This document shows positions 1,233-48,976 of a stretch of 64,000 nucleotides of DNA, in pieces. Below the pieces are notes generated by a model. That model searched no databases, was not told the DNA's origin, and saw only the letters and a program-made list of their open reading frames with translations. Position 1 is the first letter of the stretch. Every line of letters begins with the position of its first letter. The stretch comes from Patescibacteria group bacterium (GTDB lineage: Bacteria; Patescibacteriota; Patescibacteriia; UBA1558; UBA10009), in assembly GCA_018817315.1 (NCBI GenBank), contig JAHITV010000035.1, positions 22,473 through 86,472 of the forward strand, read 5' to 3'. Both the position numbers and the translations under genes were made by a program.

Positions 1233-3242
1233 ATGAACAAAGAAATTAGTACTATCTGGGGAATTCTTATTCTCCTGGTTGTTGGCAGCCTTACCTTGCT
1301 TTATTTCACCTTAACCAGTCAACCGCTCACTTCTGACTTGGTGCAATTGAATAACTTGATAAACACAAAAATTTCTGATACTAGCGGAACAATAACCAAT
1401 TTTACTTCTGAACAGGATTTTAAAGATTATTTGGAAGCTACTCCCAGCTACTTATCAATGTTTGGCGGCATGGATCGCGTAGGCGGCGAAGTTGCCGCAT
1501 CCTTATTAGAAGAATCAATGGGTATGGGTACAGCTGATGATTCACTTCAAAAAACTACCACTGATTCAGTGGATAGGGTTTCTGAAACCAATGTCCAGGT
1601 CACAGGAATTGATGAGCCGGATATTGTTAAAACCGACGGCAAAGAAATATATTTTTCCTCACGTTATTACTATGATTATAGATGGGAAGGAGGGATTGGC
1701 TTGCCAGAAATGATTCTTCCCCCTCAAGAAACAAAAAATACTTTTGCCCTTAAAGCTTTTCCGCCAACTAATTTAGCAAAAGACGCAACTATTGATAAAT
1801 ATGGTGAACTGCTACTTAAAGATAATATTCTGATTATTTTTTCTGGAGATAAAATTTACGGCTATAATGTTAGCAATCCTAAAAACCCTATAGAAAAATG
1901 GATAGTAGAGCTTGACGATAGAAATCAGCTAATTGGAACAAGAATGTATCAGGATAAAATTTATCTGATTACCAGAATGGCCATTAACACGCCTCATCCC
2001 TGTCCTATAGAACCTTTAAAAATTGACGGACAATCTTTAACAGTAAGTTGCGTTGATATTTATCACCCTTCAATCAACATACCCGTAGATGTTACTTATA
2101 ATGTCAGTGTACTTGATCCCCGTGAAGGCAAAACCAGTGATAATATTTCCTTTGTAGGATCAGCAAATAATTCCGTAATTTATATGTCGGAAAACGCCAT
2201 TTACTCCACTTATTTTTATTCAGGTGATTTAATTAAATTCATTTTTAATTTTACCAGTCTTAATCAGGATATTTTCCCACCATGGTTAATTGATAAATTA
2301 AGCAAACTGCAAACTTATGATATCAGCGACAATGCAAAATTTACTGAACTTAGCTCAATTATGGAAAAATATTATAGCTCCCTGGATAGCGACGAACGTC
2401 TAAGAATAGAAAATGAATTAACCAATAGAATGCAGGATTATTCTAAAAAACATTTTCGAGAGCTGGAAAACACAGGCATTATTAAAATTAGCGTTGCAGG
2501 ATTAAAAATTTTAGCTAATGGCAGTATACCGGGCAAACTTTTAAATCAGTTTTCTTTGGATGAATATCAAAATCATTTAAGAATAGCTACCACTGTAGGC
2601 GGAAATTGGTTTGGTATAGGTATTGGCAACGGAACTACAGAAAGCGCCAATGATCTTTATGTCCTTGATGAAAACCTGAAATTGACCGGTGCTATTAAAG
2701 ATTTAGGATTAAGCGAAAGAATTTATTCAGCAAGGTTTATTGAAGATAAAGGATATCTAGTTACTTTCAGACGCATTGATCCGTTTTATGTGCTGGATTT
2801 ATCCAATCCCCAAAATCCCCAGTTAAAAGGAGAATTAAAAATTCCTGGTTATTCTTCGTATCTTCATCCTTTAGCTAAAAATAAGATCTTAGGCATTGGA
2901 GAAGAAAATAATAAAGTTAAAATATCTTTGTTTGATGTTACTTCTCCTGCTAATCCCATTGAAATATCTAAATATACTTTAAATGAATATTGGTCTGAAG
3001 TTTCTAGTACTCATCATGCTTTTTTGCAGGATGCCAAACATCAAGTTTTCTTTATGCCTGCCAGCCAAGGAGGTTATATTTTCTCCTATCAAGGAAATGA
3101 ATTAAAATTACAAAAAGCAATCAGTGATATTGTGGCTAAACGCGCTTTATATATTAATGATTATCTTTATATAGTTGGAGAAGATAAATTGGTTGTTTTA
3201 GATGAAACAAACTGGGAAAAAGTAAATCAATTAGAATATTAA
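1233..3242 (+). CDS. hypothetical secreted/membrane-anchored protein, possible beta-propeller fold
   Basis: N-terminal TM/signal anchor (ILILLVVGSLTLLYF). Long C-terminal region has repeated Gly/aromatic-rich beta-strand blocks reminiscent of COG4880-type beta-propeller proteins. Confidence 0.4.
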   Translation: MNKEISTIWGILILLVVGSLTLLYFTLTSQPLTSDLVQLNNLINTKISDTSGTITNFTSEQDFKDYLEATPSYLSMFGGMDRVGGEVAASLLEESMGMGTADDSLQKTTTDSVDRVSETNVQVTGIDEPDIVKTDGKEIYFSSRYYYDYRWEGGIGLPEMILPPQETKNTFALKAFPPTNLAKDATIDKYGELLLKDNILIIFSGDKIYGYNVSNPKNPIEKWIVELDDRNQLIGTRMYQDKIYLITRMAINTPHPCPIEPLKIDGQSLTVSCVDIYHPSINIPVDVTYNVSVLDPREGKTSDNISFVGSANNSVIYMSENAIYSTYFYSGDLIKFIFNFTSLNQDIFPPWLIDKLSKLQTYDISDNAKFTELSSIMEKYYSSLDSDERLRIENELTNRMQDYSKKHFRELENTGIIKISVAGLKILANGSIPGKLLNQFSLDEYQNHLRIATTVGGNWFGIGIGNGTTESANDLYVLDENLKLTGAIKDLGLSERIYSARFIEDKGYLVTFRRIDPFYVLDLSNPQNPQLKGELKIPGYSSYLHPLAKNKILGIGEENNKVKISLFDVTSPANPIEISKYTLNEYWSEVSSTHHAFLQDAKHQVFFMPASQGGYIFSYQGNELKLQKAISDIVAKRALYINDYLYIVGEDKLVVLDETNWEKVNQLEY

Positions 3243-3383
3243 TTAAGCTAAAATAAAAGTAGATCCAGAAAGGGTCTGCTTTTATTTAAATCAAGGAAGT
3301 TAAAATTTGATTGAAAATTTATTTTTAATATAATAAACTAATGTTGTCTAAATAATTAATAAATTGTATAATTAAATTAACTT

Positions 3384-4250
3384 ATGAAAGAAATTCGCAA
3401 AGCAGTTATACCAGTTGCTGGTTTTGGCACAAGGTTCTTACCAGCAACCAAAGCCCAGCCCAAAGAAATGTTGCCGATCGTTGATAAACCGGCTATTCAA
3501 TATATTGTAGAAGGTTGTGTGGCTGCTGGCATCAAAGATATAATCATTGTTACCAGTAGTAATAAACGGGCAGTGGAAGATCATTTTGATTATTCCTCGG
3601 AATTAGAAAAATGGTTGATAAAACAAAAAAAAATCAAACAATTACAGGAAATCAGAAGAATAGCTAAACTGGCCAACTTTATTTATATACGTCAAAAGGG
3701 TCACTTGGGAAATGGTACACCCGTCCTAAATGCCGAAGCAATTATTGGCAATGAACCTTTTGCTGTTTTTTGGGGAGATGAATTTTATCAAGGAAAAACT
3801 TCTTGGATTAAACAAATGATAAAAGTTTATCAGAAATATCATGACCCGGTTTTGGCAGTAACTAAAACAGATGCTGAAGGACAAAAAAGGTATGGCATTA
3901 TTGACGGCCTAGAAGTTGAAAAAAATATCTATCAGATAAAAAGGGTTGTCGAAAAACCCGGTCCCAAACTCGCTCCTTCAAAGTTAGCTATAATCGGCGG
4001 ACAAATTCTCACTCCTGATATTTTCCCTCTTTTGAAAAAATTGAAGCCAGGTAAAAATGGCGAGGTTTGGTTGGTTGATGCTATTCAGCAACTTAGCCAA
4101 AAAAGAACAATTTACGCTAAAAAGATTGAAGGTAAACTTTATGATGCAGGAAACTTAATGGGTTGGCTTAAAGCCAATATAGAATTGTCATTAACCCATC
4201 AAGATATTAAAGAAGAATTTAGAAAATATCTCAAAAAACTTAAAGTTTAG
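3384..4250 (+). CDS. galU: UTP--glucose-1-phosphate uridylyltransferase
   Basis: N-terminal IPVAGFGTRFLPATKAQPKEMLPIVDKP nucleotidyltransferase signature. About 288 aa, typical of GalU. Confidence 0.85.
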   Translation: MKEIRKAVIPVAGFGTRFLPATKAQPKEMLPIVDKPAIQYIVEGCVAAGIKDIIIVTSSNKRAVEDHFDYSSELEKWLIKQKKIKQLQEIRRIAKLANFIYIRQKGHLGNGTPVLNAEAIIGNEPFAVFWGDEFYQGKTSWIKQMIKVYQKYHDPVLAVTKTDAEGQKRYGIIDGLEVEKNIYQIKRVVEKPGPKLAPSKLAIIGGQILTPDIFPLLKKLKPGKNGEVWLVDAIQQLSQKRTIYAKKIEGKLYDAGNLMGWLKANIELSLTHQDIKEEFRKYLKKLKV

Positions 4251-4261
4251 ACCTTAATTTT

Positions 4262-5638
4262 ATGAACTTAATAAAACAAAAAAAGATAATCACTTTAGTT
4301 CTTATAGCGGTCCTAATAATGACTTCTGGTTTATCTTGTAAACTTTTGCCTACCAAAAAACCTCCTTTAAGTTTAACCAAACCTATTGAATTATCTTACT
4401 GGGGAGTGTGGGATAGCAGCGATGATTGGCAACCCCTAATTGATGATTTTAATATCATGCACCCTAACATTAAAATCATTTATAAAAAATTCAGGTATGC
4501 TGAATATGAACAAAAACTATTAGAAGCCTGGGCAGAAGACAGGGGGCCGGATATCTACAGTATTCCTGCTACTTGGCTAAAAAAGTATCAAGAAAGAATA
4601 ACTCCTATGCCCGCCAGTGTTAAATTATCTTTTCGGGAGGTTAAAAAAGTTTTGGGCAAAACCGAAATATCTGATGTCGTAAGACAACTGCCCACTTTTT
4701 CTTTAAATGACATTAAAAATAAATTTGTAGATGTAATTAATGATGATATTATTATGGATGGCCAGATTTATGGCCTACCTTTTAGTGTAGACACCTTAGT
4801 CCTTTATTATAACCGTGATATTTTGGATAGCAATGGCATAGCGGTCCCTCCTGGTAATTGGACTGAGCTTGCTGAAACTGTAAAAAAAATAACCAAAGTG
4901 GATAAAAATAATAACATTATCCAGTCAGCTATAGCTTTAGGCACAGCCAATAATGTCCCTCAAGCCTTTGATATTGTTTCTTTACTAATGATGCAAAACG
5001 GAACACAAATGATAAGCAGTACTGGTCAAGTTAATTTTCATTTATCTCCTACTAAAGAAAGAGATAATCTGCCCGGTCTGCAGGCTTTGCTCTTTTATAC
5101 TGATTTTGCCAACCCTATCAAGGAAGTATATTCTTGGAATGCAGAACAACTAAATGCTTTTGAAGCTTTTATTTCTGGAAAGTTAGCTATGCTTTATGGT
5201 TATTCCTATTATCTGCCCTTAATTAAAACTCAAGCGCCAAAACTGGATGTTGGCATTGCTCCTATGACCCAAATTCAAGGCGCTACCAACCCACTTAATT
5301 ACACTGATTACTGGGTAGAAACTGTTTCCCATAAAACTAAAAGTATTGATGCTAGTTGGGGCTTTTTAACTTTTGCTGCCAGTCAAAATGAAACAGAAAA
5401 ATACTTAGAAAAAACAAAAAAGCCAGCCGCTTTAAGAAATTTAATTACTAAACAAAGAGAAGATCCGGAAATCAGTGTCTTTGCCAACCAAACTTTATCA
5501 GCTACTCACTGGTATAAAGGTAAGGATATTCTAAAAGCAGAAGAAATATTTAAAGAGCTTATTGAGACTTTGCCCAACAGCGCTGAACCTACAAAATTAC
5601 TGGAATTAACTGCTAAAAAAATTAACTTAACTTTATAA
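4262..5638 (+). CDS. extracellular solute-binding protein (ABC transporter family 1 SBP-like)
   Basis: N-terminal signal anchor. YEQKLLEAWAEDRGPDIYS motif and overall length are typical of SBP_bac_1 sugar-binding proteins. Confidence 0.5.
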   Translation: MNLIKQKKIITLVLIAVLIMTSGLSCKLLPTKKPPLSLTKPIELSYWGVWDSSDDWQPLIDDFNIMHPNIKIIYKKFRYAEYEQKLLEAWAEDRGPDIYSIPATWLKKYQERITPMPASVKLSFREVKKVLGKTEISDVVRQLPTFSLNDIKNKFVDVINDDIIMDGQIYGLPFSVDTLVLYYNRDILDSNGIAVPPGNWTELAETVKKITKVDKNNNIIQSAIALGTANNVPQAFDIVSLLMMQNGTQMISSTGQVNFHLSPTKERDNLPGLQALLFYTDFANPIKEVYSWNAEQLNAFEAFISGKLAMLYGYSYYLPLIKTQAPKLDVGIAPMTQIQGATNPLNYTDYWVETVSHKTKSIDASWGFLTFAASQNETEKYLEKTKKPAALRNLITKQREDPEISVFANQTLSATHWYKGKDILKAEEIFKELIETLPNSAEPTKLLELTAKKINLTL

Positions 5639-6309
5639 TGAAACCTAAACCTTCCAGTCTTTTAATTTATTTTCTTATTCTAATTGGCTTGTTGTTTTTA
5701 CCACTGCTGGTTAAAGCGCAAATTTTACCTGCCTGCAGTACTACGGGTAATTGCGGAATCTGTGATTTTTTAGACACTTTTGTTAATATTATCCGTTGGG
5801 TATTGGGTGTGGTAGGAGGCCTGGCTTTATTACTGATGGTCTGGCACGCTTTTGGCTGGCTAACATCAGCAGGTAATGAAGAAAAAATAAAAACTTCGCG
5901 GCAAGGTATAGTACATACTATTTTAGGTGTGGTTATTATTTTAGTGGCCTGGCAGTTAGTTAATATTATTATTGTGCTGTTAGTAAGTCCGCAAGGTGGA
6001 AATGAAATTAAACTTTTTGGAAATAATGGCAAAATCTGGTACAGATACTGTAGTGAAGTAAATGAATGTATTGGCCGGGCAGATGGCAGTCCTTGTGGAG
6101 ATGGTTATTATTGTGAAAATCAAAGCTGTAATAACACCGGAGAAAGTGCTTGTAATTATTGGGCAACCTATAAGGATCCTGCTAAAATGGGCGGTACTAA
6201 TCCTTATGCTGAATACAGATGTTTAACTAAAGATCAATGTGATCCTTATGAAAATTTAGGTCCGGCTTACTGCCCAGGAACAGAAGAAAGCTGTTGTAAA
6301 CCCAAATAA
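5638..6309 (+). CDS. VirB2/TrbC-like pilin family protein, paralog 1, with Cys-rich N- and C-terminal extensions
   Basis: Signal peptide, then conserved two-helix core (ALLLMVWHAFGWLTSAGNEEKIKTSRQGIVHTILGVVIILVAW) shared with 8 downstream paralogs. C-terminal 90 aa contains about 16 Cys. ATG overlaps the upstream stop (TAATG). Confidence 0.55.
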   Translation: MKPKPSSLLIYFLILIGLLFLPLLVKAQILPACSTTGNCGICDFLDTFVNIIRWVLGVVGGLALLLMVWHAFGWLTSAGNEEKIKTSRQGIVHTILGVVIILVAWQLVNIIIVLLVSPQGGNEIKLFGNNGKIWYRYCSEVNECIGRADGSPCGDGYYCENQSCNNTGESACNYWATYKDPAKMGGTNPYAEYRCLTKDQCDPYENLGPAYCPGTEESCCKPK

Positions 6310-6343
6310 CTTAACCCATAAAATTATTTTAAACAAATCTTCT

Positions 6344-6727
6344 ATGAATTTATTTAAAAAAACAGTTGCTCTTATTATTTTTATTTTACTGTTTAATTTA
6401 TTAATCGGATATAATGCTAATTTGGTTTATGCGCAAAACACTAATGAATCTGGTACATATTTAGAAAATCCTTTGGGTTCAGAAAGTTTAACTGCCATTG
6501 ATATTTATGCCCGCCTTATTTATGCTTTTATGGGTTTTACTGGAATTTTAGCGTTAATTATGTTTATTCTTGGCGGTTTTCAGTGGATGACAGCCGGGGG
6601 TAATGCTGAAAAAATCAAAAAGGGCAGAGACACTTTAATTTGGGCTGTTTTGGGTCTAGTTATTATTTTTGCTAGTTACGCTATTCTTAGAGCTGTGTTT
6701 CAAACTTTACAATTTGGCGCAGGATAA
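6344..6727 (+). CDS. VirB2/TrbC-like pilin family protein, paralog 2
   Basis: Signal peptide plus core GGFQWMTAGGNAEKIKKGRDTLIWAVLGLVIIFASYAI. Confidence 0.6.
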   Translation: MNLFKKTVALIIFILLFNLLIGYNANLVYAQNTNESGTYLENPLGSESLTAIDIYARLIYAFMGFTGILALIMFILGGFQWMTAGGNAEKIKKGRDTLIWAVLGLVIIFASYAILRAVFQTLQFGAG

Positions 6728-6888
6728 ACTTATACCTAAAACTAGCTAAAAACAATCAATTATTGTATAATTATATTGATAAATTGGTTTCAAAGTTATC
6801 CACATTATTAATTAATAAATAAAATAATACACTGGAATTTTTATTCTTAAGTGAATATAATTTCCAAACGTGGAAGGGGGTGAAGACA

Positions 6889-7257
6889 ATGAAAAAATTT
6901 TTAACAAAGAAAAATTTAATTGCTCTGGCCGGAGGCCTGTTATGGGCAATCCCTCTAATGGTGGGAGCTCAAGCATCTTTAGGTATAGAGATTGGAGGTT
7001 CTACTGGTTTAGGTAGTCGTGATCTTAAAGAAACCATTGCTTCTGTTTTAAATGTACTTCTTGGTTTCTTGGGTATAATTGCAGTAATTGTTATCCTTCT
7101 AGGTGGTTTTAAATGGATGACAGCCGGGGGTAATGAAGATAAAGTAGCAGAAGCTAAAAAACTTTTAGGCGCGGGTATTATTGGCTTAATAATTATTCTA
7201 GCTGCCTATGCTATTGCTACTTATGTCATTAGTACCATTTCAACCGCCACTCAATAA
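6889..7257 (+). CDS. VirB2/TrbC-like pilin family protein, paralog 3
   Basis: Core GGFKWMTAGGNEDKVAEAKK. ATG at 6889 is preferred over the GTG at 6880 because a GAAGGGGG Shine-Dalgarno sits 6-10 nt upstream. Confidence 0.6.
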   Translation: MKKFLTKKNLIALAGGLLWAIPLMVGAQASLGIEIGGSTGLGSRDLKETIASVLNVLLGFLGIIAVIVILLGGFKWMTAGGNEDKVAEAKKLLGAGIIGLIIILAAYAIATYVISTISTATQ

Positions 7258-7399
7258 TCCCTGCTCCATAATAGTCAGCATTAATAACAAATTTTGTTAA
7301 ATTTACAATTTATACTATATCCCGTCCCGCCATTGGTATGGCGGGATAAGGCATAAATTGTAAGGATTATAAATTATTTATAATTTGAATCTTAAATTA

Positions 7400-7840
7400 A
7401 TGAGCTTTTTATTTAAAAAAAATAAATTATGGCAGTTGGGCTTTGTTGCCCTGTTTTTATTTTTAACCGCTTCTTTTTTATTGCCTTGTTCTCTTTTTGC
7501 TCAAGAAGCTCCGCCTCCTGCCAGTGCGGCCTTAGAAGGATTAGATTTAACTGCCCAAAAAGCTCAAATTAATACGGAAATTACTGCCACGCAAATGGTC
7601 GGTTATATTATAAACTTAATTCTAGGATTTTTAGGCGTTATCTTTTTGGTTTTGGTTATTTATGGCGGTTTTCAGTGGATGACAGCCGGCGGTAATGAGG
7701 AAAAAGTAAAAAAAGGACGTGACATGATTGTTCAAGCAGCTATTGGTCTGGCTATTATTCTCTTTGCTTTTGTTTTAACCAACTTTGTCATCTTCAGATT
7801 ACTTGGCATTGCTGTAGGAAATGGTTCTTCCCCTTATTAA
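7400..7840 (+). CDS. VirB2/TrbC-like pilin family protein, paralog 4
   Basis: Core GGFQWMTAGGNEEKVKKGRD. The ORF track begins at TTG 7385; the first ATG is at 7400. Confidence 0.55.
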   Translation: MSFLFKKNKLWQLGFVALFLFLTASFLLPCSLFAQEAPPPASAALEGLDLTAQKAQINTEITATQMVGYIINLILGFLGVIFLVLVIYGGFQWMTAGGNEEKVKKGRDMIVQAAIGLAIILFAFVLTNFVIFRLLGIAVGNGSSPY

Positions 7841-7849
7841 TTAAGAAAT

Positions 7850-8419
7850 ATGAAAATCAAAATCTTATTTGTAATAATTTTCTTTCTACTAGGATATTTC
7901 TTGTTCCCTAATTTATCTTTTGCTCAAAATATTGATGTTAGTGATACTTGCCCGCCTGGAATGTCTTTGCAGGACTGTATTAGAATGGGTTTAGGCCAAG
8001 TGGGTGATACCAGTGGTTATGGTCCGGCCGGACCCATAGAAGCCACTGCTATTTCCGAAAAAGTTGGTAATATTATTTCTTATGTTCTGGCTTTTTTAGG
8101 CGTTATCTTCTTGGTTATCACTGTTGCTTCTGGTATCCAATGGATGACAGCCGGCGGTAATGAGGAAGTGGTTAAAAAAGCGCGGACTAGACTGGTTAAT
8201 GCTACTGTGGGCTTAATTATTGTAGTAGCTGCCTATGCTATAACCTGGTTTGTAGTTACCAAACTTAGACAAAGTATTGATATAGGTGCTGGTTCTGGGT
8301 CTACCTCTTTGAGTTGTAGTGATCCCATTGACTGTGAAGGTACTAGTTGGGCTAATGAATGTTACAGTAGTGGTGGATCGGTTAATTGTATAGATAACTT
8401 TTGTGCATGTACTTATTAA
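7850..8419 (+). CDS. VirB2/TrbC-like pilin family protein, paralog 5, with Cys-rich C-terminal tail
   Basis: Core SGIQWMTAGGNEEVVKKARTRL. Tail CSDPIDCEGTSWANECYSSGGSVNCIDNFCACTY. Confidence 0.6.
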   Translation: MKIKILFVIIFFLLGYFLFPNLSFAQNIDVSDTCPPGMSLQDCIRMGLGQVGDTSGYGPAGPIEATAISEKVGNIISYVLAFLGVIFLVITVASGIQWMTAGGNEEVVKKARTRLVNATVGLIIVVAAYAITWFVVTKLRQSIDIGAGSGSTSLSCSDPIDCEGTSWANECYSSGGSVNCIDNFCACTY

Positions 8420-8441
8420 TAAAATATTATATTGGATATAA

Positions 8442-8807
8442 ATGAAAAAAATCTTCACAATCATTTTAATATTATTCTTTCTGTTTTTAAGCACTTCTTT
8501 TGTTTTAGCAGCTGATCCTTTGGAAGATAATCTTAAGGCAATCGGCCAAGGCGCTGATTATTCTACCAATGTTGGCGAGGAAACCATTCCTTCTTTTATT
8601 GGCCAAATGGTAGCTATTATCTTGGGTTTTATCGGCTCAATCTTTTTCATTATTGTTGTTTATTCTGGTATTCAGTGGATGACAGCCGGAGGTAATGAAG
8701 AAGTGGTTAAAAAATCACGTACCAGGTTAATTAATAGTATTATTGGACTGGCTATTACAACTGCTGCTTATTTTATTACCCAGCTAATCAGTAGAGCTTT
8801 TATCTAG
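8442..8807 (+). CDS. VirB2/TrbC-like pilin family protein, paralog 6
   Basis: Core SGIQWMTAGGNEEVVKKSRTRL. Shares a 20+ bp identical DNA stretch with paralog 5. Confidence 0.6.
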   Translation: MKKIFTIILILFFLFLSTSFVLAADPLEDNLKAIGQGADYSTNVGEETIPSFIGQMVAIILGFIGSIFFIIVVYSGIQWMTAGGNEEVVKKSRTRLINSIIGLAITTAAYFITQLISRAFI

Positions 8808-8830
8808 ATTATAAACTGCTTTTTAACTCC

Positions 8831-9418
8831 ATGAACAAACTTTCAACTAAGATAGGGCTATTGTTTCTGTCTGTATTAATACTTTTTTGTATTTTACCGA
8901 TAAATACACTGGCCCTAGATATTGATAAATATTCTGATATTATAGCTGAAAGAGGAGGTTATCAAACTGGCGGCGATGTTGAAACTTTTTTTGACACCTT
9001 TATAGGAAGAGTTATTGCTTATGTATTAGGATTTGTCGGCATAATCTTTTTGATTTTGATTATTATTTCCGGCTTTCAGTGGATGACAGCCGGAGGAAAT
9101 GAAGAAAAAGTCGGTATAGCCCGCAAACGGATAGTTAGCGCAGTAATTGGTTTATTTATTATCCTTGCCGCCTATCTTATAACTTATTTTGTCTACACTA
9201 CTATTAAAACTGCCAGCGAAGGGGGAACGCCAGCAAATTTACAAGAGGGCTTTGAATGTCAATATAATACTGATTGCACTGATCCTAGCGAACCTTACTG
9301 TCAGCATTTCCCTACCTGGAGTTTTTGCGCAAGATGTACAGAAGACAGCCATTGCGGACCAGGAGAACAATGTTGTACATCTTTAACTAGTAACTGGTGC
9401 GCTGGCTCTTGTAATTGA
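8831..9418 (+). CDS. VirB2/TrbC-like pilin family protein, paralog 7, with Cys-rich C-terminal tail
   Basis: Core SGFQWMTAGGNEEKVGIARKR. Tail CQYNTDCTDPSEPYCQHF...CARCTEDSHCGPGEQCCTSLTSNWCAGSCN. Confidence 0.6.
   Translation: MNKLSTKIGLLFLSVLILFCILPINTLALDIDKYSDIIAERGGYQTGGDVETFFDTFIGRVIAYVLGFVGIIFLILIIISGFQWMTAGGNEEKVGIARKRIVSAVIGLFIILAAYLITYFVYTTIKTASEGGTPANLQEGFECQYNTDCTDPSEPYCQHFPTWSFCARCTEDSHCGPGEQCCTSLTSNWCAGSCN
9024..9090 (+). repeat. 67-bp segment identical to 9628..9694 (inside paralog 7 core region)
   Basis: Direct read: tattaggatttgtcggcataatctttttgattttgattattatttccggctttcagtggatgacagc is identical in both genes. Confidence 0.85.
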
Positions 9419-9428
9419 TAATAATAAT

Positions 9429-10022
9429 ATGAAACCTGCCAAAAAAATTTGTATAATCATAATTTTTATTTCATTATTGACAATTATTTTTTCCTATCAA
9501 ATAAATAACGCTCTAGCCTTTACTCAAAGTGAAAAATATAAAGGTTATCTTGATATTGCCAGAGAACAAAGCGGCTATAATACAATAAATGATGTTAGTC
9601 AGCTACCTGCTAGAATTATTGTCTTGATATTAGGATTTGTCGGCATAATCTTTTTGATTTTGATTATTATTTCCGGCTTTCAGTGGATGACAGCAAGCGG
9701 CAATGAGGAAAAAATTAGCAGTGCCCGTAAACGAATAATTAATGCTTCTATTGGTCTGGGTATTACTTTATGCGCCTTTATTATCTCTTATGGTATTTTT
9801 AAACTGTTTTATGAACAAACCTTACAAGTACCAAGCGGAGGTATAGAACCGCCGCCAGGGGCAGGAGAAATAATTCCTTGCAGTTCTGATATACAATGTG
9901 AAGATAGATCGCCAAGAATTTATTGTCTTAGTGGAAACTGTGTTGAATGCATAGAAGACGCTCACTGTACTCTTGATAAATATTGTCATCCCAGTTGGCA
10001 TGCCTGCCTGCCTTCTCCTTAA
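9429..10022 (+). CDS. VirB2/TrbC-like pilin family protein, paralog 8, with Cys-rich C-terminal tail
   Basis: Core SGFQWMTASGNEEKISSARKR. Tail CSSDIQCEDRSPRIYCLSGNCVECIEDAHCTLDKYCHPSWHAC. Confidence 0.6.
   Translation: MKPAKKICIIIIFISLLTIIFSYQINNALAFTQSEKYKGYLDIAREQSGYNTINDVSQLPARIIVLILGFVGIIFLILIIISGFQWMTASGNEEKISSARKRIINASIGLGITLCAFIISYGIFKLFYEQTLQVPSGGIEPPPGAGEIIPCSSDIQCEDRSPRIYCLSGNCVECIEDAHCTLDKYCHPSWHACLPSP
9628..9694 (+). repeat. 67-bp segment identical to 9024..9090 (inside paralog 8 core region)
   Basis: Same 67-mer as above. Confidence 0.85.
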
Positions 10023-10042
10023 AGATTATTTATTATACCTAT

Positions 10043-10450
10043 ATGAAAATTATAAATAAAATTAAAATCAAATTAATTCTTTTACTGGCGAGTTTAACTT
10101 TTTTGCCGGCTGAAATTTCTAAAGCCCAAAATCCTCTTGAGCGTTTAAAAAGTACTGCTTCTCAATCCGGCTATGCCACTCAACAGGTTACCCCGGCAGA
10201 AACTGTAGCTACTATTATTATTTATGTGCTGGGATTTATTGGTTTAATTTTTCTGGCAGTTACAATTTTTTCCGGCTTTCAGTGGATGACAGCCGGAGGC
10301 AATGAGGAAAAAATCAGTGAAGCTAAAAAACGTTTGCAGTATGCAGTTATTGGCTTACTAGTAATCTTAGCGGCTTATACTATAACCATCTTTGTTTCTC
10401 GTGCTCTAATTCATTCAACTACCCAATATTATTACGGTCCTTATCCATGA
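10043..10450 (+). CDS. VirB2/TrbC-like pilin family protein, paralog 9
   Basis: Core SGFQWMTAGGNEEKISEAKKR. Start at internal ATG (MKIINKIKIK) rather than the overlapping upstream ATG at 9983. Confidence 0.55.
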   Translation: MKIINKIKIKLILLLASLTFLPAEISKAQNPLERLKSTASQSGYATQQVTPAETVATIIIYVLGFIGLIFLAVTIFSGFQWMTAGGNEEKISEAKKRLQYAVIGLLVILAAYTITIFVSRALIHSTTQYYYGPYP

Positions 10451-10469
10451 AAATATTTATTGATTTATA

Positions 10470-10497
10470 AGAGCCCTGAAAAGTGGCTCTTTTTTAT
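10470..10497 (+). terminator. rho-independent terminator closing the pilin array
   Basis: agagcc-ctgaaaagt-ggctct hairpin followed by TTTTTTATTT. Confidence 0.55.
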
Positions 10498-10525
10498 TTA
10501 AATTAAAATTGATAAAATAGGAATA

Positions 10526-12490
10526 ATGCCAATCTTTCTAAAAAAACATTCTAAAAAAATCCTGTGGCTGGGGATCTTTCTTTATTTTTCTATTTTTTGT
10601 GGAATCTGTATCTGGAAATATTCCCAGTTTGGCTATAATGGCTTGGATTTAGCGATTTTTAATCAGGTTTATTCCAACTCAACTGTTGGGCAACTTTTTC
10701 AATTTACTATTCATCCCCAATCTTATTTAGGCGATCACCTGGCTTTGATTATTATTCCCCTGCTACCGCTTTATTATTTTTTCCGACATCCTCTTTGTTT
10801 ATTAATCATGCAAACCTTGATTATTGCTCTTACTGCTTGGCCTATTTATAAAATCTCTCAAAAATTGTTTGCTGGCTTATGGCCTTTGTTTTTTAGTTTG
10901 GCCTGGCTATTTAATCCTTTTACGCAAAATATTAATATTTTTGAGTTCCATCATCTGCCTTTTGCTGTTTTTTTGATTTTTTGGGCTTTTTATTTTTACC
11001 AAAATAAACGTTTTACTTATTTTATTCTGTTTACTGTACTTAGTTTAATGGTCCGTGAAGATGTTGCTTTGGTAATGGTAATGTTTCCGATTCTGGCTCT
11101 TTTAGAAAAAAGAGGGATTAAATGGATTATCTGGCCTGGTTTAATTTCTCTTGGTTGGTTTTTTGTAGCTATAAAAATAATCTCTTATTTTTCTCCGGAA
11201 AGTCAATATAAATTTCTTTATTACTATTCCTGGCTTGGTCAAAGCTGGACAGAAATAATCATCAATACTTTCGCTCATCCTTTATTAGTGCTTAAACACC
11301 TTGCCACTTGGCATAATTTGATGTTCACCTTGGGGTTAATGCTACCCTTTGCTTATCTTTTAAAAATCAGATATTTATTATTAGGATTTCTGATTTATTT
11401 ACAGCTTATTTTTGGCGGTTCTAGTAATTCCACTATTATTCTTAGTCTTCATTATTCAGCTTTGCTTTTACCAGCGCTTTTTATTGCTTTTATTTATTTT
11501 ATAAAAAATATTACGAAATTATCTCCGCAAAATAAATTAAAGCTTTTTTTAGGCAGAGAAAAATTATTAACTGTCAGTATTATAACTATAGCAATTATTT
11601 ATTCCTGCTTGACCCTTGGTCCCTTACCTGCAGTAATAAAAAATCTGGTTAAACCAACCAAAACAATAGAAATTACTAATGCTAAAAAGGAATTCCTACA
11701 AACTGTATCAGTTAAAAACAGTGTTGTTACTACTTATGAATTTTTAGCACCGCTTTCTAATCGTTCTGATATTTACTCACTTCATTATGCTTTTATTGGC
11801 AAACAACAATTCTCTGATGTTAATTATACTTTGCCTGAAAATTTAGATGTAATGCTTATTGACTTTGATGATTTTCTTACTTATGAATTGCAATTCCCTA
11901 ATATTAAAGCTTGGCAACAATATTATCAAGATGGCGATAATAATATAAGAAAATTAATAAAGGAACGAGACTTTAAAGTAACTAAAGTTTTTGATTCTTT
12001 AGTCCTAATGGAAAAAGATAAGGACTTGGATATAATTTTATATGAAAGAGGAAATAATTTTAATAATATTCAACACCCCAAAAAAATAAATCTTGATAAC
12101 AAGATAAATTTTCTAGGCTGGAATGATAATCAATCAATCTCTGATCAAAATTTAAAATCTTTCAGTTTTTATTGGCAAGCTACTAAAAAACTGGAAGAAA
12201 ATTACCAGCTTAAATTAATTTTAAAAGATGAAAATGATCAGATTATTTATGAAAAAATTTATGCCTTAGCTTATGGTCTTTGCCCTACTACTGAATGGCA
12301 AACCAATGAAGTAATTAAAACAAATTATTGGTTTTATACCCCTCAAAAAATAGCTAATCTTAGCTATAAAATAGAACTTGAATTAGTTGAGTTAAAGGGC
12401 TTTTTAAAACTTGATGGCTTACGTTCTGTTATACCAATAATTACTAAAGAAAATAAATTAACTCCCCATATCAAATTACTTGATAAATAA
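10526..12490 (+). CDS. DUF2079-like polytopic membrane protein
   Basis: More than 12 predicted TM helices. N-terminal YSQFGYNGLDLAIFNQVYSNS motif resembles DUF2079 proteins, with a large C-terminal extracytoplasmic domain. Confidence 0.45.
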   Translation: MPIFLKKHSKKILWLGIFLYFSIFCGICIWKYSQFGYNGLDLAIFNQVYSNSTVGQLFQFTIHPQSYLGDHLALIIIPLLPLYYFFRHPLCLLIMQTLIIALTAWPIYKISQKLFAGLWPLFFSLAWLFNPFTQNINIFEFHHLPFAVFLIFWAFYFYQNKRFTYFILFTVLSLMVREDVALVMVMFPILALLEKRGIKWIIWPGLISLGWFFVAIKIISYFSPESQYKFLYYYSWLGQSWTEIIINTFAHPLLVLKHLATWHNLMFTLGLMLPFAYLLKIRYLLLGFLIYLQLIFGGSSNSTIILSLHYSALLLPALFIAFIYFIKNITKLSPQNKLKLFLGREKLLTVSIITIAIIYSCLTLGPLPAVIKNLVKPTKTIEITNAKKEFLQTVSVKNSVVTTYEFLAPLSNRSDIYSLHYAFIGKQQFSDVNYTLPENLDVMLIDFDDFLTYELQFPNIKAWQQYYQDGDNNIRKLIKERDFKVTKVFDSLVLMEKDKDLDIILYERGNNFNNIQHPKKINLDNKINFLGWNDNQSISDQNLKSFSFYWQATKKLEENYQLKLILKDENDQIIYEKIYALAYGLCPTTEWQTNEVIKTNYWFYTPQKIANLSYKIELELVELKGFLKLDGLRSVIPIITKENKLTPHIKLLDK

Positions 12491-14120
12491 CCACCTCATT
12501 ATTCTGATAAACAGGTTTAAGATAATTTTTTTCTTGCGGATTAAAACTTTCTAAAAATCTTTCTTGCGAACCGTAAAATATATAGTTAATACCCTCATAT
12601 TTTAACCACTCATATTTTTCTTTATCCCCTTTATTGGTTTTAAAAAACCATAATTTGACTTTGAATAATTTGAACATCCAATCGCCTGTCTGATGACCGT
12701 GACCGATATACACTTTATTGGCAGTAACAGCTGGAATTATATTACCGGTTTTTGCACTGCTTAAAATTACCTTATCCTTACTGATGTTATTTTTAAGCCA
12801 AAGCATGGCTTGATATTCTTCTTGTTTGAGATAATAAAGCGGAGGCCTGGTGCTTAAAATCACAATATCTTGACCGACATTATAAAAAGTGGAAGAAATT
12901 AATAAAAACCCCAAACTCATTACTAAAAAAGCGCGAACAGAATAATATTTAAGCATTTCCTGCCAGAAAAATCTTTTATTCAGATAATTAATGACTAAAT
13001 ATAATCCTAAAACTGCAATTATAACCATTGGCAAATGCAGTCCGTTTGATAATCTTCTTTGAAACTGCAAAGGCACAAATAATAAAAACCAACCAACAAT
13101 TGACCAAATGCCCAAGAAACGCCAATAATTATTTTGGCTCTTTACTGCTTTATAAATACCGAATAAATAGAAGATAAAAATCAAACCATAGCCAACAGCA
13201 TAATTAAAAAATCTAGGAGATAAAGTTATATTTTGTACTGCCCAGACTGCAAAAGAGGAATCAGTGAATTTTAACCATAAAAAATATAAAATAGCCAAGC
13301 TGGAAACCACGAATATAACTGCCAGTTTAGAAAACTGTTTCCATGAGATCTTTTTTTGTTTTAGACAATTAACTAAAAACCAGCAACCAACCACAGTATA
13401 AATAATTATCAGATCATAAGGATGAAAAATACCTAAGAATAAAGTTATAAAACTGATAAATATAACAGATAACCAATTAGTTTTGTTTAATCGTTCAATT
13501 AACCACCAAAAAATAAATAAAATGAAAATTTGTGAAAGAATAAATAAAGGTGAATGATATAAAGTTAAAAAAGTATTACCTTCCGAAACCCACATATCTG
13601 TACCAAAAGTATTATACATATTTTCTGCGCTCCAAGGTTTATTAAGAGTAAATACTCCTAAACCTGATCCCAAACAAATAGCAAAAAAACAAACTTTTTT
13701 CCATTTGATTTTATTAAAAAATCTACTAATAAACAGATAAATAAAATATAAAAAAACAGCACCTAGTAAAATTCTGGCAAAATGGAAAATAAATACTTTT
13801 GATAAACCGGTTATTGCCGTCAGCCAACCCAAAACCAGCCAAACCGGCGAAAAAATCTTTGCTACAGCTGCTTCGGAAGTATAAAGATTATGGAATAAAA
13901 GATGGCCTTGCATGGCTTCTTCTATTTGCGAAAAATAAACCATTTTATCTGCTCCGGCAATAACAGTAAAGCCAGTGTAATGTAAATTTGGAGGAGTAGA
14001 AAGCCAGCCATAAATGACTGGTATCACCGAAATTAATAAGGTAAGAAAAATCAGGAAAAAAACAAAATTCTTTTCTTTACCACTGATTGATTTGTGAACT
14101 TCTTTAATAAAAGAAAACAT
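12471..14120 (-). CDS. polytopic membrane protein, putative GT-C fold glycosyltransferase (PMT/ArnT-like)
   Basis: 549 aa with about 12 TM helices, a first-loop acidic motif and a C-terminal soluble domain. Architecture resembles GT39/GT83 enzymes; no motif-level certainty. Confidence 0.4.
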   Translation of the reverse strand: MFSFIKEVHKSISGKEKNFVFFLIFLTLLISVIPVIYGWLSTPPNLHYTGFTVIAGADKMVYFSQIEEAMQGHLLFHNLYTSEAAVAKIFSPVWLVLGWLTAITGLSKVFIFHFARILLGAVFLYFIYLFISRFFNKIKWKKVCFFAICLGSGLGVFTLNKPWSAENMYNTFGTDMWVSEGNTFLTLYHSPLFILSQIFILFIFWWLIERLNKTNWLSVIFISFITLFLGIFHPYDLIIIYTVVGCWFLVNCLKQKKISWKQFSKLAVIFVVSSLAILYFLWLKFTDSSFAVWAVQNITLSPRFFNYAVGYGLIFIFYLFGIYKAVKSQNNYWRFLGIWSIVGWFLLFVPLQFQRRLSNGLHLPMVIIAVLGLYLVINYLNKRFFWQEMLKYYSVRAFLVMSLGFLLISSTFYNVGQDIVILSTRPPLYYLKQEEYQAMLWLKNNISKDKVILSSAKTGNIIPAVTANKVYIGHGHQTGDWMFKLFKVKLWFFKTNKGDKEKYEWLKYEGINYIFYGSQERFLESFNPQEKNYLKPVYQNNEVVIYQVI

Positions 14121-14189
14121 CTCTTATATTTTAATAAAGATTTTAAAATAAACAATGGAAAATTATTAAAGTTATTGCTGGCCTCTTTT

Positions 14190-15758
14190 TTATTTCCATA
14201 AATTAGTTTGCCAATAATAAATTTTGCTTTCTGAATCTTCATATAGCAAAGTAAAGTTAGGGTTTAGTTTTAAAGTATTATCTAGGGTCTGATGTTTTTT
14301 ATCCAAAAAAACATAATCAGCTTTAAACTGTTCTTGAATAATTTTACCTAAATCTATCTGTCTACTGCCTAATGTTATATTAACATACTGCCAATATTTC
14401 TCCTTATTATATTCATACATAAAAGTGGGGTCAAGACCAGTAAGATAATAATTATGATCATTGTAATAAAAAAGGGCGGGAAAATCATCCCAATCAGCAT
14501 GAAATATTACTGAATGAAGCGGCGTATTCTCTCTTAACCAACTACTGGCTTTTTGGTAATGGTTTAAGGGAAATCCTTGCTCCATATCCTTTTTAACTGT
14601 TCTTAAATCATAAGGGATATTAATAATAAGGCCTAGTAAGATTACTGAAAACAATAAGCTAAAGGTCCATTTCCAGGTTCTACTTAAACCTAACCAGAGT
14701 TTTTGCGCTATTCTACTTTTAATGAAATCACTTAAACTAAAAGCAAAGAAAATAACAGTAAAAGGCACATACACCTCAACATAACGGCGGGATTTTAAGG
14801 TTAAAAGAAAAAAAGCTATGCCAAGTACGCCCCATAACCAGGAATAAACTGACTGTTTTTTTAAAGTTAAAATAAAAACGAAAATACCAACTAATAATAA
14901 AGAACAAATCAAAGGAGCGTCAGTTATTAGTTTTAAGAAACCATAAGGATACCATTCACCGCCCACTCCTATAACACGGTGATAATTTATCACAGCAATT
15001 TTTACAAATTGTTGCCAATAAAAAAACAAATTAGCAGGAAAATAAGGATTAATAACAATACCCGCTAAAATACCGCCGCCCAAACATGCTAATTCTGAAG
15101 CAGGAGACAATAATTTTTGATTAGTCTGATGTTTTCTACGAATAATCTTAACTATTTTAACTAAAATAGCATACAATACGCCCATTACTACTATTAAAGG
15201 CCAACCAGCATAAAGCCAAACGGAAGCAAAAGCAATAATAAATAACAGGATTTTCTTTTGATGGGTTAAACAATAAAAAGCTAAAATCATCAGAATTAAA
15301 AAAACTACTGGTACTTTGACTAAACTGATTCTAAAAAGCCAAGGTTGCGCTGCTAATAAAAAACAGATGAAAATAAAAGGCCATTTAATATGATACTGTT
15401 TAAATAACCAATAAATAATTAAAACTAAAAGAGTAGCAAAAATTACAGTAGCAGCTTTTACCCCGACTAGAGGGTTAAAAAAACTCACGACTGGTATTAA
15501 GAGTAAGTGATAAAGAAAATGATGGTCAACAAAAACATCTTTGAGGTTTGTTTCCTGGAGCCAAGGCAGTTGTTTAAGAATTTTTCCTGAACTTAATAAT
15601 TCTGATACTTTAGCATGATAAAAAGAATCTGGTTCAGGCAAGGTCTGGCTTGACTGTAGCCAAAAAAATAAGGTTAAAGCTAAAAGAACCACTAAAAAAT
15701 AGTCAAAAAGATACTTATAATTTATTCTTTCTAGCCATAATTTTAATTCATTAAACAT
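14190..15758 (-). CDS. polytopic membrane protein, putative GT-C fold glycosyltransferase (PMT/ArnT-like)
   Basis: 522 aa and multi-TM. Loop-1 PDSFYHAK resembles the DE/DxxY(H) motif of GT-C mannosyltransferases. C-terminal periplasmic domain. Confidence 0.4.
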   Translation of the reverse strand: MFNELKLWLERINYKYLFDYFLVVLLALTLFFWLQSSQTLPEPDSFYHAKVSELLSSGKILKQLPWLQETNLKDVFVDHHFLYHLLLIPVVSFFNPLVGVKAATVIFATLLVLIIYWLFKQYHIKWPFIFICFLLAAQPWLFRISLVKVPVVFLILMILAFYCLTHQKKILLFIIAFASVWLYAGWPLIVVMGVLYAILVKIVKIIRRKHQTNQKLLSPASELACLGGGILAGIVINPYFPANLFFYWQQFVKIAVINYHRVIGVGGEWYPYGFLKLITDAPLICSLLLVGIFVFILTLKKQSVYSWLWGVLGIAFFLLTLKSRRYVEVYVPFTVIFFAFSLSDFIKSRIAQKLWLGLSRTWKWTFSLLFSVILLGLIINIPYDLRTVKKDMEQGFPLNHYQKASSWLRENTPLHSVIFHADWDDFPALFYYNDHNYYLTGLDPTFMYEYNKEKYWQYVNITLGSRQIDLGKIIQEQFKADYVFLDKKHQTLDNTLKLNPNFTLLYEDSESKIYYWQTNLWK

Positions 15759-18240: not shown

Positions 18241-18942
18241 ATGAAAGTGATAGGTTTATCTTCGGATATTTTATATAAAACAGTTCCTCCTACCTCAAAA
18301 AAAATCTTTAAAATATTTCGTAAAATTAACTGCCGCGCCGTTGAAATACATTGTCCTGCCAGCGAATTATCCTCTTTAGAAAGAATTGATCCTGCTGATT
18401 TACAAGGATTTACGCATGTTTCTCTTCATTTACCAAGTAGAGGGATAATTTATGACAATAATTCTAAAACCAAAAGAATTCTTGAACTAATACAAAGAAC
18501 TAAGGAAAAATTAAATTTTAAATGGGTGATAGTTCATCCTCATAAAGTAAAGAATTGGAATATCTTTAAGAATTGTTCATTCACAGTTGCCGTGGAAAAT
18601 ATGGATTATAAAAGAAATTTTGGTAAAAACGTTGAAGATTTAAAAAAAATTTTTAAAAATACTTTTCTAAAATTTATTTTAGATATTAATCATTGTTTTA
18701 CTAACGATAGATCATTAAAGCTAGTGGATGATTTATATAAAAATTTTAAAGATAAATTATGCGAAATCCATGTCAGTGGTTTTATCAAAAACCATGAGCC
18801 ACTACACCTAACCAAACAAAAGAAAATCCTGCAAGCGATTCCTGATTGTACTTGTCCTATTATTATTGAAAGTGTCTGTCTTAACGAAGATCAACTTAAG
18901 AAAGAATTTACCTATATTAATAATTTTTTCCATGCCTCATAA
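18241..18942 (+). CDS. hypothetical protein, possible sugar phosphate isomerase/epimerase (xylose isomerase-like TIM barrel)
   Basis: Spaced VIVHP...AVENMD...LDINHCF...EIHVSG motifs resemble the metal-ligand pattern of AP-endonuclease-2/xylose-isomerase-like TIM barrels. Confidence 0.3.
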   Translation: MKVIGLSSDILYKTVPPTSKKIFKIFRKINCRAVEIHCPASELSSLERIDPADLQGFTHVSLHLPSRGIIYDNNSKTKRILELIQRTKEKLNFKWVIVHPHKVKNWNIFKNCSFTVAVENMDYKRNFGKNVEDLKKIFKNTFLKFILDINHCFTNDRSLKLVDDLYKNFKDKLCEIHVSGFIKNHEPLHLTKQKKILQAIPDCTCPIIIESVCLNEDQLKKEFTYINNFFHAS

Positions 18943-20392: not shown

Positions 20393-20419
20393 TCTTTTTA
20401 TTAAAAAACAAATAATTTT

Positions 20420-21901: not shown

Positions 21902-22848
21902 CTCTATTAGAAAAAAATATTAAACAAATTTTAACCAAACATAAACTTACCTCAACCAAAGTTATTCGTTTAAGTAACCGTTTTTTAGTTATCAAAGGAA
22001 AGCTTAAAAGTCAAAAAGTTATTTTTAAAATTTTAATCTCCCAAAATCAGTATGAGCAAGATAAAGCCGGTCAAGCTCTAATCAAAGAAGTAAAATTTTT
22101 AAACTTCTTACAAAATAAAGGAACAAAAATCATAAAACAATCAGTCAACCGAATTATTGATTACCAAAAAAATAAACACAGCTGGTATTTAAAAAATTGG
22201 TTACCTGGTCAGTCTCAAAAAGTTATTGGTAGTGGTTGGTTTTTTAAAGACAATTTTTTTACTACAAAAAATGTTGAGTATTTAAGCTGTTTCTATAATG
22301 ATTTATATCAATTATCAGAATCTTTACCAGCTGATTTACAGAAAATTTTTACACGTTCTAAATTAAGTGATTACGAAAATTTCATTGATTGGAAAAACTT
22401 ATTAATCTTTTTGAGACTAGCCAATCTGCCAATAAAAAAAGATGTTGATAAGATAAAAAAATTTATTATAAGGCACAGAAAAATTTTTGACTCACAACAA
22501 AATGTTATTAATCAATATGAGCCCTACGCTGACCATCTTTTAACCCATAAAAATAAAACTGCTATAATTGACTGGGAAAACGTCAATTTTGGCGATATCG
22601 CCCATGATTTAGCAGTTGTCTGGCTACGTGCTTTTAATCATCCTGACTGGCAGAAATCATTGGTAAATAATTTTAAACACTTACCTTATTTTAAAGAATT
22701 AATGAATCTACAAATTGTCATTCAAAGTGTTTCCAATATTCGTTACTTTTTAGAAACCTCTTATTCAATAGACGAAAAAAACTCCACTAAAATAATAAAA
22801 ATACTTCAAAAATTTGTTAAGCAAGCTTTAAATGACCAAATCATCTAA
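21898..22848 (+). CDS. phosphotransferase family protein (APH/choline-kinase-like fold)
   Basis: LTHKNKTAIIDWENVNFGDIAHDLA carries the catalytic-loop and DFG-like motifs of aminoglycoside-phosphotransferase-like kinases. Confidence 0.5.
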   Translation: MTLLEKNIKQILTKHKLTSTKVIRLSNRFLVIKGKLKSQKVIFKILISQNQYEQDKAGQALIKEVKFLNFLQNKGTKIIKQSVNRIIDYQKNKHSWYLKNWLPGQSQKVIGSGWFFKDNFFTTKNVEYLSCFYNDLYQLSESLPADLQKIFTRSKLSDYENFIDWKNLLIFLRLANLPIKKDVDKIKKFIIRHRKIFDSQQNVINQYEPYADHLLTHKNKTAIIDWENVNFGDIAHDLAVVWLRAFNHPDWQKSLVNNFKHLPYFKELMNLQIVIQSVSNIRYFLETSYSIDEKNSTKIIKILQKFVKQALNDQII

Positions 22849-23737: not shown

Positions 23738-23749
23738 TTAATTATTTTA

Positions 23750-25213: not shown

Positions 25214-25246
25214 ATATTTAATTTATTTTTAGATAACCAATAATTT

Positions 25247-26194: not shown

Positions 26195-26200
26195 TAGAAT

Positions 26201-27031: not shown

Positions 27032-27032
27032 A

Positions 27033-45866: not shown

Positions 45867-45951
45867 ATTCCGTTCGGCCTGTCTCGATGCCGAATCGACA
45901 CGGAGGTGAGCTCACAGCCGAAGGCTAAACAAATTTTAATAATATAAATTT

Positions 45952-47946: not shown

Positions 47947-47986
47947 TTTAGTTGTTTAGGCCTAAATAAATACTACCAATAATTCT

Positions 47987-48928: not shown

Positions 48929-48930
48929 CA

Positions 48931-48953: not shown

Positions 48954-48976
48954 CGCTGTTGCCGTTATCAATAATT

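Follow-up and report, generated by a model that had tools for sequence, protein, structure and literature searches.

The 64,000-nt window analysed here, from the Patescibacteria group bacterium assembly GCA_018817315.1 (contig JAHITV010000035.1), carries nine tandem open reading frames (ORFs) on the + strand, at 5638-10450, which encode paralogous proteins of the VirB2-like type IV secretion system (T4SS) pilin family PF18895. Four of them, P1, P5, P7 and P8, extend beyond the pilin core into Cys-rich C-terminal modules (tails), which are the subject of this work. An earlier note on this DNA had drawn attention to the span 6030-10022, which opens where the P1 tail begins and closes with the P8 stop codon. 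The genes of the array are as follows, with the PF18895 scores in bits (gathering score 26.6).

5638-6309, + strand: P1, 223 aa, 35.3 bits; predicted signal peptide and two transmembrane helices; N-terminal ectodomain with the motif LPACSTTGNCGICDF, C33, C39 and C42 (nt 5734-5763); tail of 86 residues (138-223) with 11 Cys (nt 6049-6306).
6344-6727, + strand: P2, 127 aa, 39.0 bits; tail-less and Cys-free.
6880-7257, + strand: P3, 125 aa, 43.5 bits (TrbC 23.7 bits); tail-less and Cys-free.
7385/7400-7840, + strand: P4, 146-151 aa, 33.5 bits; short Cys-free tail, the sole Cys in the signal peptide.
7850-8419, + strand: P5, 189 aa, 29.1 bits; N-terminal ectodomain with C34 and C43; Gly/Ser linker; tail of 34 residues with 6 Cys (nt 8315-8416), spaced C-5-C-8-C-8-C-4-C-1-C.
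8442-8807, + strand: P6, 121 aa, 29.3 bits; tail-less and Cys-free.
8831-9418, + strand: P7, 195 aa, 36.3 bits; tail of 53 residues with 10 Cys (nt 9257-9415), and one extra Cys in the signal peptide.
9429-10022, + strand: P8, 197 aa, 34.9 bits; Pro/Gly linker; tail of 47 residues with 8 Cys (nt 9879-10019), and one extra Cys each in the signal peptide and in helix 2.
10043-10450, + strand: P9, 135 aa when begun at the ATG (with a possible TTG start at 9983, in overlap with P8), 37.5 bits; Cys-free, with a Tyr/Pro-rich end, TQYYYGPYP (nt 10424-10447).

All nine paralogs scored above the PF18895 gathering score (29.1-43.5 bits), and most of the orthologues scanned from two related loci, L001 and L004, passed it as well, with one L004 protein (12389-13288) under the cut-off at 24.1 bits. 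The matches to the TrbC/VirB2 family PF04956 were weak, the best being that of P3 at 23.7 bits and the others lying at 14-17 bits or going undetected, all under the cut-off of 27.9. Those to NF045849, the Mbov_0395 pilin-like conjugal transfer protein, reached 25.1-38.4 bits, below the cut-off of 40. The label "VirB2-type" used in the earlier note draws on PF18895 and on these weak, sub-threshold matches to PF04956.

When hydropathy and charge were analysed, every paralog was found to begin with a Lys-rich N-terminus and a hydrophobic, signal-peptide-like segment ending in an Ala-x-Ala/Gln-type site, followed by two long hydrophobic helices with which the helices predicted by AlphaFold2 for P1 and P8 agree. 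Between the helices, all nine proteins have the loop G-F-Q-W-M-T-A-G-G-N-E-E-K followed by three to four Lys/Arg residues. By the positive-inside rule this loop would be cytoplasmic, which would place both ends of the mature pilin, and with them the tails, outside the cell.

The presence of Cys-rich C-terminal domains on four of the paralogs, as claimed in the earlier note, was borne out by the tails of P1, P5, P7 and P8, with 11, 6, 10 and 8 Cys, respectively. Only the count for P1 was wrong, since in place of the about 16 Cys in 90 residues given there, this protein has 11 in its 86-residue tail and 3 in its N-terminal part, 14 in total. The end sequences quoted for P5, P7 and P8 were exact, and the remaining paralogs do lack such domains, P2, P3, P6 and P9 being Cys-free and P4 having only the Cys of its signal peptide. 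As Cys makes up 0.92% of the residues in the window ORFs of at least 150 aa, the tails are more than tenfold enriched. At this background, the binomial probability of the Cys count was 5e-10 for the P1 tail, 7e-7 for P5, 6e-11 for P7 and 1e-8 for P8, and chance clustering of Cys was rejected on these values (7e-7 to 6e-11).

The tails continue in frame from the pilin core, with no stop codon between them. In orthologues of P8 from independent metagenomes, 218-318 aa in length, the fusion is kept, and most of these proteins carry additional Cys modules. The P8 tail can be read as two 4-Cys units, C151-C157-C166-C171 and C174-C180-C186-C193, and a 13-sequence alignment of these first two units, with identities of 32-55%, has no exchange at any of the eight tail Cys but insertions of up to about 20 residues in one loop. 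Across orthologues ranging from 32 to 57% identity the tail Cys are kept, and the non-Cys positions of the tails are identical at 33-34% on average, compared to 58-59% in the two-helix core, and such fixed Cys among divergent positions are the pattern expected of a disulfide scaffold with variable exposed loops. The paralogs P7 and P8 are themselves 43% identical over 92% of the P7 length. Similar conservation of spacing was found for the tails of P7 and P5, as the P7 orthologue of locus L007 (11119-11712) has a nearly identical Cys spacing, and that of P5 in L001 (13133-13720) follows the same pattern, C-5-C-7-C-8-C-11-C-1-C, plus two N-terminal Cys.

The AlphaFold2 models of P1 and P8, built from shallow alignments, predicted folded tails with confidence. 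The pLDDT was 71-92 for the P1 tail, with an average of 55-61 in linker residues 111-140, and in P8 residues 151-190 had 84-90 and the final block 78, the tail being modelled as two beta-hairpins after a linker (130-138) with values below 50. The earlier note had considered that the tails could be disordered, or that the Cys-rich segments could form a separate overlapping gene; the models point to folded domains, and the conserved in-frame fusion excludes a separate gene. The tails are genuine, in-frame conserved C-terminal modules of pilin-family proteins.

The distribution of the tails was followed in a survey of 83 loci from species-representative genomes (80 from a scan plus the window, L001 and L004), in which all ORFs were searched with hidden Markov models (HMM). 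Among the 597 pilin ORFs, 110 had a tail of more than 30 residues and 77 (13%) had at least four Cys in the tail. The number of Cys was even in 69 of these 77 tails (binomial p = 1.6e-13), and at least four of the eight tails with an odd number (from the window, L001, L004 and L009) are P1-like, in which the three N-terminal Cys make the total even. Grouping of the 77 tails by BLAST gave 44 groups, the largest of which (20 tails) holds P7 and P8, with the P1 tails in a group of five, so that what the pilins carry is not one domain but a range of different Cys-rich modules.

The arrays of L001/L002 (GCA_018818425.1) and L004 are syntenic, with an NTP_transferase gene, a solute-binding-protein (SBP) gene, eleven pilin genes and then a DUF2079 gene. 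When the array spans were compared (window, 5638-10450; L001, 10001-16690; L004, 8359-15104; and L007), the paralogs proved to be one-to-one positional orthologues across genera. P3 is the most conserved of them; over the whole alignment it is 62-64% identical to its counterparts, the third genes of L001 and L004, and its best tblastn segment in L007 reaches 83%. Cys tails occupy ordinal positions 1, 5, 6, 8 and 9 of the 11-gene arrays of L001 and L004, the other genes being bare, and positions 1, 5, 7 and 8 of the 9-gene array of the window. Tail length differs at equivalent positions, from 47-66 residues in the window to 140-175 in L001 and L004. The comparison with related genomes that the earlier note had proposed showed, in the syntenic arrays and in the survey, that the sets of tails differ among them.

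Further features of these arrays were noted in the same survey. Cys-rich domains were also found in the N-terminal ectodomain of some PF18895 pilins (P0028, P0030 and many first or second genes in L021-L086), about 51 of the 597 ORFs having at least three Cys before helix 1, a figure subject to uncertain ORF starts; either outward-facing end could therefore carry a module. At the end of each array, one or two paralogs have conserved Cys-free, Tyr/Pro-rich ends, as in TQYYYGPYP, TPGYYSFFPWP, TSGYYSYPP and VQQNYGYN (window; L001, 16277-16690; L004, 14287-15104). A second kind of array, of 5-8 genes and with almost no Cys tails, is present in other genomes (L016, L018, L024, L030 and L045), and its sampled neighbours encode PBP1A (L018 and L045) and NusA, an H+-pyrophosphatase and trigger factor (L045). 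The window holds these neighbour genes, at 26985-29921 and 44625-50254, but no pilin array was found beside them by HMM search. Many loci with Patescibacteria-type arrays (L009, L011, L013 and others) are titled "uncultured Gammaproteobacteria bacterium", which is probably a labelling problem in that submission of metagenome-assembled genomes.

The P1 family was the first gene of the array in all ten loci having it. With at least 22 members, this family keeps nine of its 14 Cys without exception and each of the remaining five in 90% or more of the sequences, and in P1-like proteins the motif L-P-x-C-x5-C-x2-C-D, in which C-x5-C-x2-C-D is invariant, immediately precedes helix 1. Three minimal members without the large tail (L008, 6993-7457; L010, 6935-7369; L012, 6961-7401) keep the three N-terminal Cys and exactly one C-terminal Cys, which sits in a W-[YNT]-x-[YVS]-C context (W-Y-E-Y-C in L010) and corresponds to the first tail Cys of the window P1, C138, at nt 6049-6051. 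This parity of Cys points to a disulfide between the N-terminal motif and the C138-type C-terminal Cys, so that in P1 C138 is probably stapled to the C-x5-C-x2-C motif, and ten Cys, or five disulfides, would be left for the tail domain. The conjugative pili solved so far have the loop between the helices turned to the lumen, and both termini side by side at the other end of the subunit (PMC11722321). A disulfide between both ends of P1 would fit such adjacent termini, and by analogy could do with redox chemistry what TrhA and TrbC do by backbone cyclisation. No candidates came from a word-indexed search for homologues with only the P1 tail as query, which reflects a limit of the method and not the absence of homologues.

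The resemblance of the tails to Dickkopf, knottin or colipase folds proposed in the earlier note held only in part. Dickkopf_N (PF04706) matched the second unit of P8 with 19.2 bits, below the cut-off of 25 and over model positions 1-25 of 51 only, and in the Pfam scan the tails of P1, P5 and P7 had no match to it. An L004 orthologue gave 18.5 bits with DUF7107 and 16.2 bits with Dumpy_DPY, both under their gathering scores. These three are eukaryotic families whose weak matches fall on the same short Cys motif and cover about half or less of the model, and the tails have four Cys per unit, compared to the ten of the Dickkopf_N domain. Nor was any colipase match found in Pfam scans of the tails with E-values up to 10. 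In two homologues of P8, P0013 and P0014, both C151 and C166 are missing, and this joint loss suggests a 1-3/2-4 pairing within the 4-Cys unit, inside which no cystine knot would then be possible. On this suggested pairing a knottin is an improbable description of the P8 tail, and no knottin family was matched. The knotted connectivity I-IV, II-V and III-VI, which takes six Cys, may still apply to the 6-Cys tail of P5. A search of the PDB sequences with a P8-type tail profile gave only E = 0.19 and 0.32, to a histone-lysine methyltransferase chain and an Ascaris carboxypeptidase inhibitor, which were not counted.

A closer, still distant, relative of the P7/P8 unit appears to be the 22-residue, 4-Cys repeat TIGR04201 (Myxo_Cys_RPT), found in the TraA receptor of Myxococcus. 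Directly, its scores were 14.2 bits for P8 and 20.3 bits for the L004 orthologue at 13298-14197, under the cut-off of 25. When the P8-type tail profile was run against 1.84 billion representative proteins, 39 were recovered at E <= 0.001, which were pilin orthologues and surface proteins with many matched repeat stretches. Among the repeat proteins scanned, P0063, P0067, P0068 and P0069 pass TIGR04201, with P0063 also passing Dickkopf_N and DUF7107, and the library-wide E-values of the TIGR04201-passing proteins retrieved by the profile ranged from 1e-10 to 2e-7. As the profile reaches these proteins, the P7/P8 unit (C-x2-C-x5-C-x5..20-C) would be a distant relative of this repeat class, nearer to it than to Dickkopf. 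Both share the spacing C-V-x-C-x2-D-x-[DN]-C, and both are extracellular, the tails by prediction; for the repeats of TraA, a receptor for outer-membrane exchange, an oxidised state and a role as rigid stalk have been proposed (PMC3325183). In contrast, the TraA repeats occur with a PA14 domain and a MYXO-CTERM tag and not on a pilin hairpin, the number of tail units is two in P8 of the window and up to about six in orthologues, and the tails of P1 and P5 are unrelated to the repeat.

The array is flanked by the following genes, both on the same strand.

4262-5638, + strand: SBP gene (PF01547, PF13416), whose stop codon overlaps the start codon of P1 by one base.
10526-12490, + strand: gene for a DUF2079 membrane protein (PF09852), a conserved neighbour that follows the array in 15 loci, L001 and L004 among them.

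An SBP gene lies directly upstream of the array (-7 to +114 nt) in at least 42 of the 83 loci, and Cys-tailed pilins were present in 28 of the 53 SBP-linked loci compared to 3 of the 30 others (Fisher p = 1e-4). The conserved block consists of NTP_transferase, SBP, pilins and DUF2079, followed by two large multi-transmembrane proteins without a Pfam match (12471-14120 and 14190-15758, - strand), and it could serve in pilin glycosylation or in uptake. In the region 3200-10700, six terminator-like sites were detected compared to 6.0 expected, and 37 promoter-like sites compared to 28.7 ± 5.0.

The window as a whole is of low GC content, at about 29-39% across 2-kb windows, and includes dnaN and dnaA at 30247-32975 (- strand), about 20 kb away from the array. 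The proteins it encodes are listed at NCBI under "Patescibacteria group bacterium", on a contig of 123,711 bp. The distance of dnaN and dnaA from the array agrees with the tendency of T4SS and pilin genes of Patescibacteria to lie near the origin (PMC12102498). Elsewhere in the window, a cluster for glycogen or sugar metabolism (18866-27031) has two GT5 starch-synthase-like genes, a GH57 gene, and genes for a galactose-1-phosphate uridylyltransferase, a ROK kinase and PHP and APH-like proteins. At 56053-63699 a protein of 2548 aa is encoded with SpvB, TcdB_toxin_midN, RHS-repeat, FG-GAP and Ig domains, a giant surface protein similar to Tc toxins or polymorphic toxins, in a reduced genome.

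Arrays of VirB2-like pilins are already known in Patescibacteria, and one of them is essential in Southlakia epibionticum (PMC10633639; PMC12102498; PMC12857230). Quinonero-Coronel et al. (2025) described 441 arrays of 2-11 divergent pilin genes, noted their location near the origin, and counted 1135 of 1948 Patescibacteria assemblies in which virB4 has PF18895-type pilins as neighbours (PMC12102498). The array of the window shares with the published ones (Wang et al., 2023, PMC10633639; PMC12102498) the Pfam family, the tandem layout, the phylum and the near-origin position, but it is not beside virB4. Moreover, in those studies the pilins are treated as small divergent subunits, with no mention of Cys-rich C- or N-terminal domains, of fixed ordinal paralog types or of an upstream SBP gene (PMC10633639, PMC12102498, PMC12857230). 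The earlier note had supposed that such tails were undescribed for VirB2-type pilins, and full-text searches of the literature on pilins of Patescibacteria and the candidate phyla radiation likewise returned no report of them. The arrays are known, and by the literature searched the Cys-rich tails appear to be new, although the proteins themselves are already public under the name "pilin" only.

Compared to the pilins of other systems (VirB2, TraA, TrbC, TrhA and the archaeal CedA1 and TedC), those of the array share the signal peptide, the two-helix hairpin and the positive loop. Where some known pilins are backbone-cyclised, the P1 family would have the N-to-C disulfide instead. VirB5, and the minor pilins of type IV pili with PilY1/PilC, are a functional analogy only, in that different subunits with fixed places in the gene order form a set of which a part does the binding. 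There is no sequence relationship with them, and here the putative binding module is fused to a VirB2-type subunit.

These data establish an array of nine VirB2-like pilin paralogs in a member of the Patescibacteria, and we propose that in P1, P5, P7 and P8 a flexible Gly/Pro/Ser linker joins the outward C-terminus to a small domain held by disulfides, likely five in P1, three in P5, five in P7 and four in P8. The modules would decorate the exterior or the tip of a filament or, where subunits do not polymerise, the cell surface, and would act as rigid spacers, as surfaces for binding host cells, or as both. The Cys scaffold would stay constant while the loops and the number of modules differ among species, and fixed positions together with invariant Cys and variable loops and module number point to a role in structure or recognition (stalk, spacer or host binding) and not to interchangeable antigenic variants. 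That the tails are extracytoplasmic disulfide-rich modules integral to pilin-family proteins is highly probable in our view. Their display on a pilus for adhesion or recognition, close to the modular tip or adhesin domains imagined in the earlier note, is a tentative proposal, for which the chances fall a little short of even. The explanation as a whole, which blends both claims, we favour with moderate confidence.

A number of observations weigh against this proposal. No Pfam or NCBIfam model reached its threshold on any tail, including the longer tails of orthologues, and the fold searches returned only helical-hairpin matches, these searches being uninformative because the transmembrane hairpin dominates the models. 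The pairing of the disulfides was deduced from sequence and not seen directly in the models, and the window yielded no thiol oxidase of the DsbA, DsbB or VKOR type. The conjugative pilins known so far are of small size, without an appended folded domain and with separate adhesins, and some of them lose C-terminal residues in maturation. A profile search with the pilin core found no relatives among PDB sequences, and with neither a solved structure nor a PDB sequence relative for any PF18895 protein, pilus formation is assumed. Finally, no VirB4, VirB6 or VirD4 gene is present in the 64 kb, where the array lies between the SBP gene and the DUF2079 gene.

This last point also favours a reading in which the hairpin is a mere membrane anchor and the tailed paralogs are unpolymerised surface proteins of an envelope, uptake or glycosylation system with the SBP and the DUF2079/GT-C-like membrane proteins, without any T4SS. 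The overlap of the SBP gene with the P1 start codon, its position before so many arrays and the concentration of Cys tails in SBP-linked loci agree with it as well, as do the lack of a PF18895 filament structure and the fact that the sampled SBP-less, almost tail-free arrays are likewise not beside T4SS genes. However, the five tail-less paralogs (121-151 aa) have little beyond the hairpin and fit filament subunits better, and the same family adjoins virB4 in more than a thousand assemblies and is essential in S. epibionticum, so that we consider a mere anchor unlikely. Still less probable is the cleavage of the tails in maturation, as pro-domains or as released Cys-rich peptides (signals, toxins or defensin-like). 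TrbC and TrhA lose 27 and 5 C-terminal residues, respectively, when they mature (PMC11722321), each tail follows a flexible Gly/Ser/Pro linker, and modules of 34-86 aa have the typical size of secreted Cys-rich peptides. Nevertheless, no TraF/TrhF-like peptidase was seen at the locus and the linkers have no evident conserved cleavage motif. In addition, orthologous tails of 140-180 aa with several modules are unlike a leader or pro-peptide, and the putative N-to-C disulfide of P1 would hold the tail on the pilin despite a cut in the backbone.

Binding of metal by the Cys clusters, in zinc-ribbon-like or Fe-S sites and without disulfides, would be compatible with the C-x2-C spacings CVEC (P8), CARC (P7) and CGIC (P1), and many Patescibacteria inhabit anoxic groundwater. 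The tails are nevertheless predicted to lie outside the cell, they have few conserved His, and metal sites do not need the even Cys count that 69 of the 77 tails have; with their nearest relatives being Cys repeats outside the cell for which oxidation is predicted (PMC3325183), we regard this reading as very improbable. Short ORFs in other frames do run over the tails, at 6062-6226 and 9189-9386 on the + strand and at 8213-8494 and 9822-10001 on the - strand, a point in favour of reading the tails as artefacts of a frameshift, of read-through or of a separate overlapping gene. But the fused architecture with its invariant Cys recurs in dozens of independent assemblies, and identical proteins are deposited at NCBI as "pilin", so that the probability left to an artefact is negligible and these conserved in-frame fusions effectively refute it.

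The preferred explanation, of pilins with built-in disulfide-rich modules, bears on how these arrays work. Tails at fixed positions and one-to-one positional orthology between genera argue for a division of labour among the paralogs, and against the antigenic variation proposed for the arrays in the literature. The tails also challenge the minimal, 70-residue view of conjugative-type pilins, because the packing of 50-180 extra residues per subunit into a filament is puzzling. More speculatively, and with a rather low probability, the SBP-linked arrays would build a heteropolymeric VirB2-type filament with fixed paralog positions, with modules for host recognition or stalk formation built on the subunits in place of a separate adhesin and P1 closed by a disulfide, and maybe independent of a canonical T4SS. 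If true, a bacterium with a single membrane and a need for a host would have a so far unrecognised route to an adhesive pilus of the conjugative type.

Patescibacteria depend on a host, and the VirB2-like array is essential in the only species of the group that is genetically tractable. Folded, fast-evolving domains on a disulfide scaffold, located at fixed positions of the array, are a candidate surface for contact with the host, and the tails may make the pilus sticky or host-specific.

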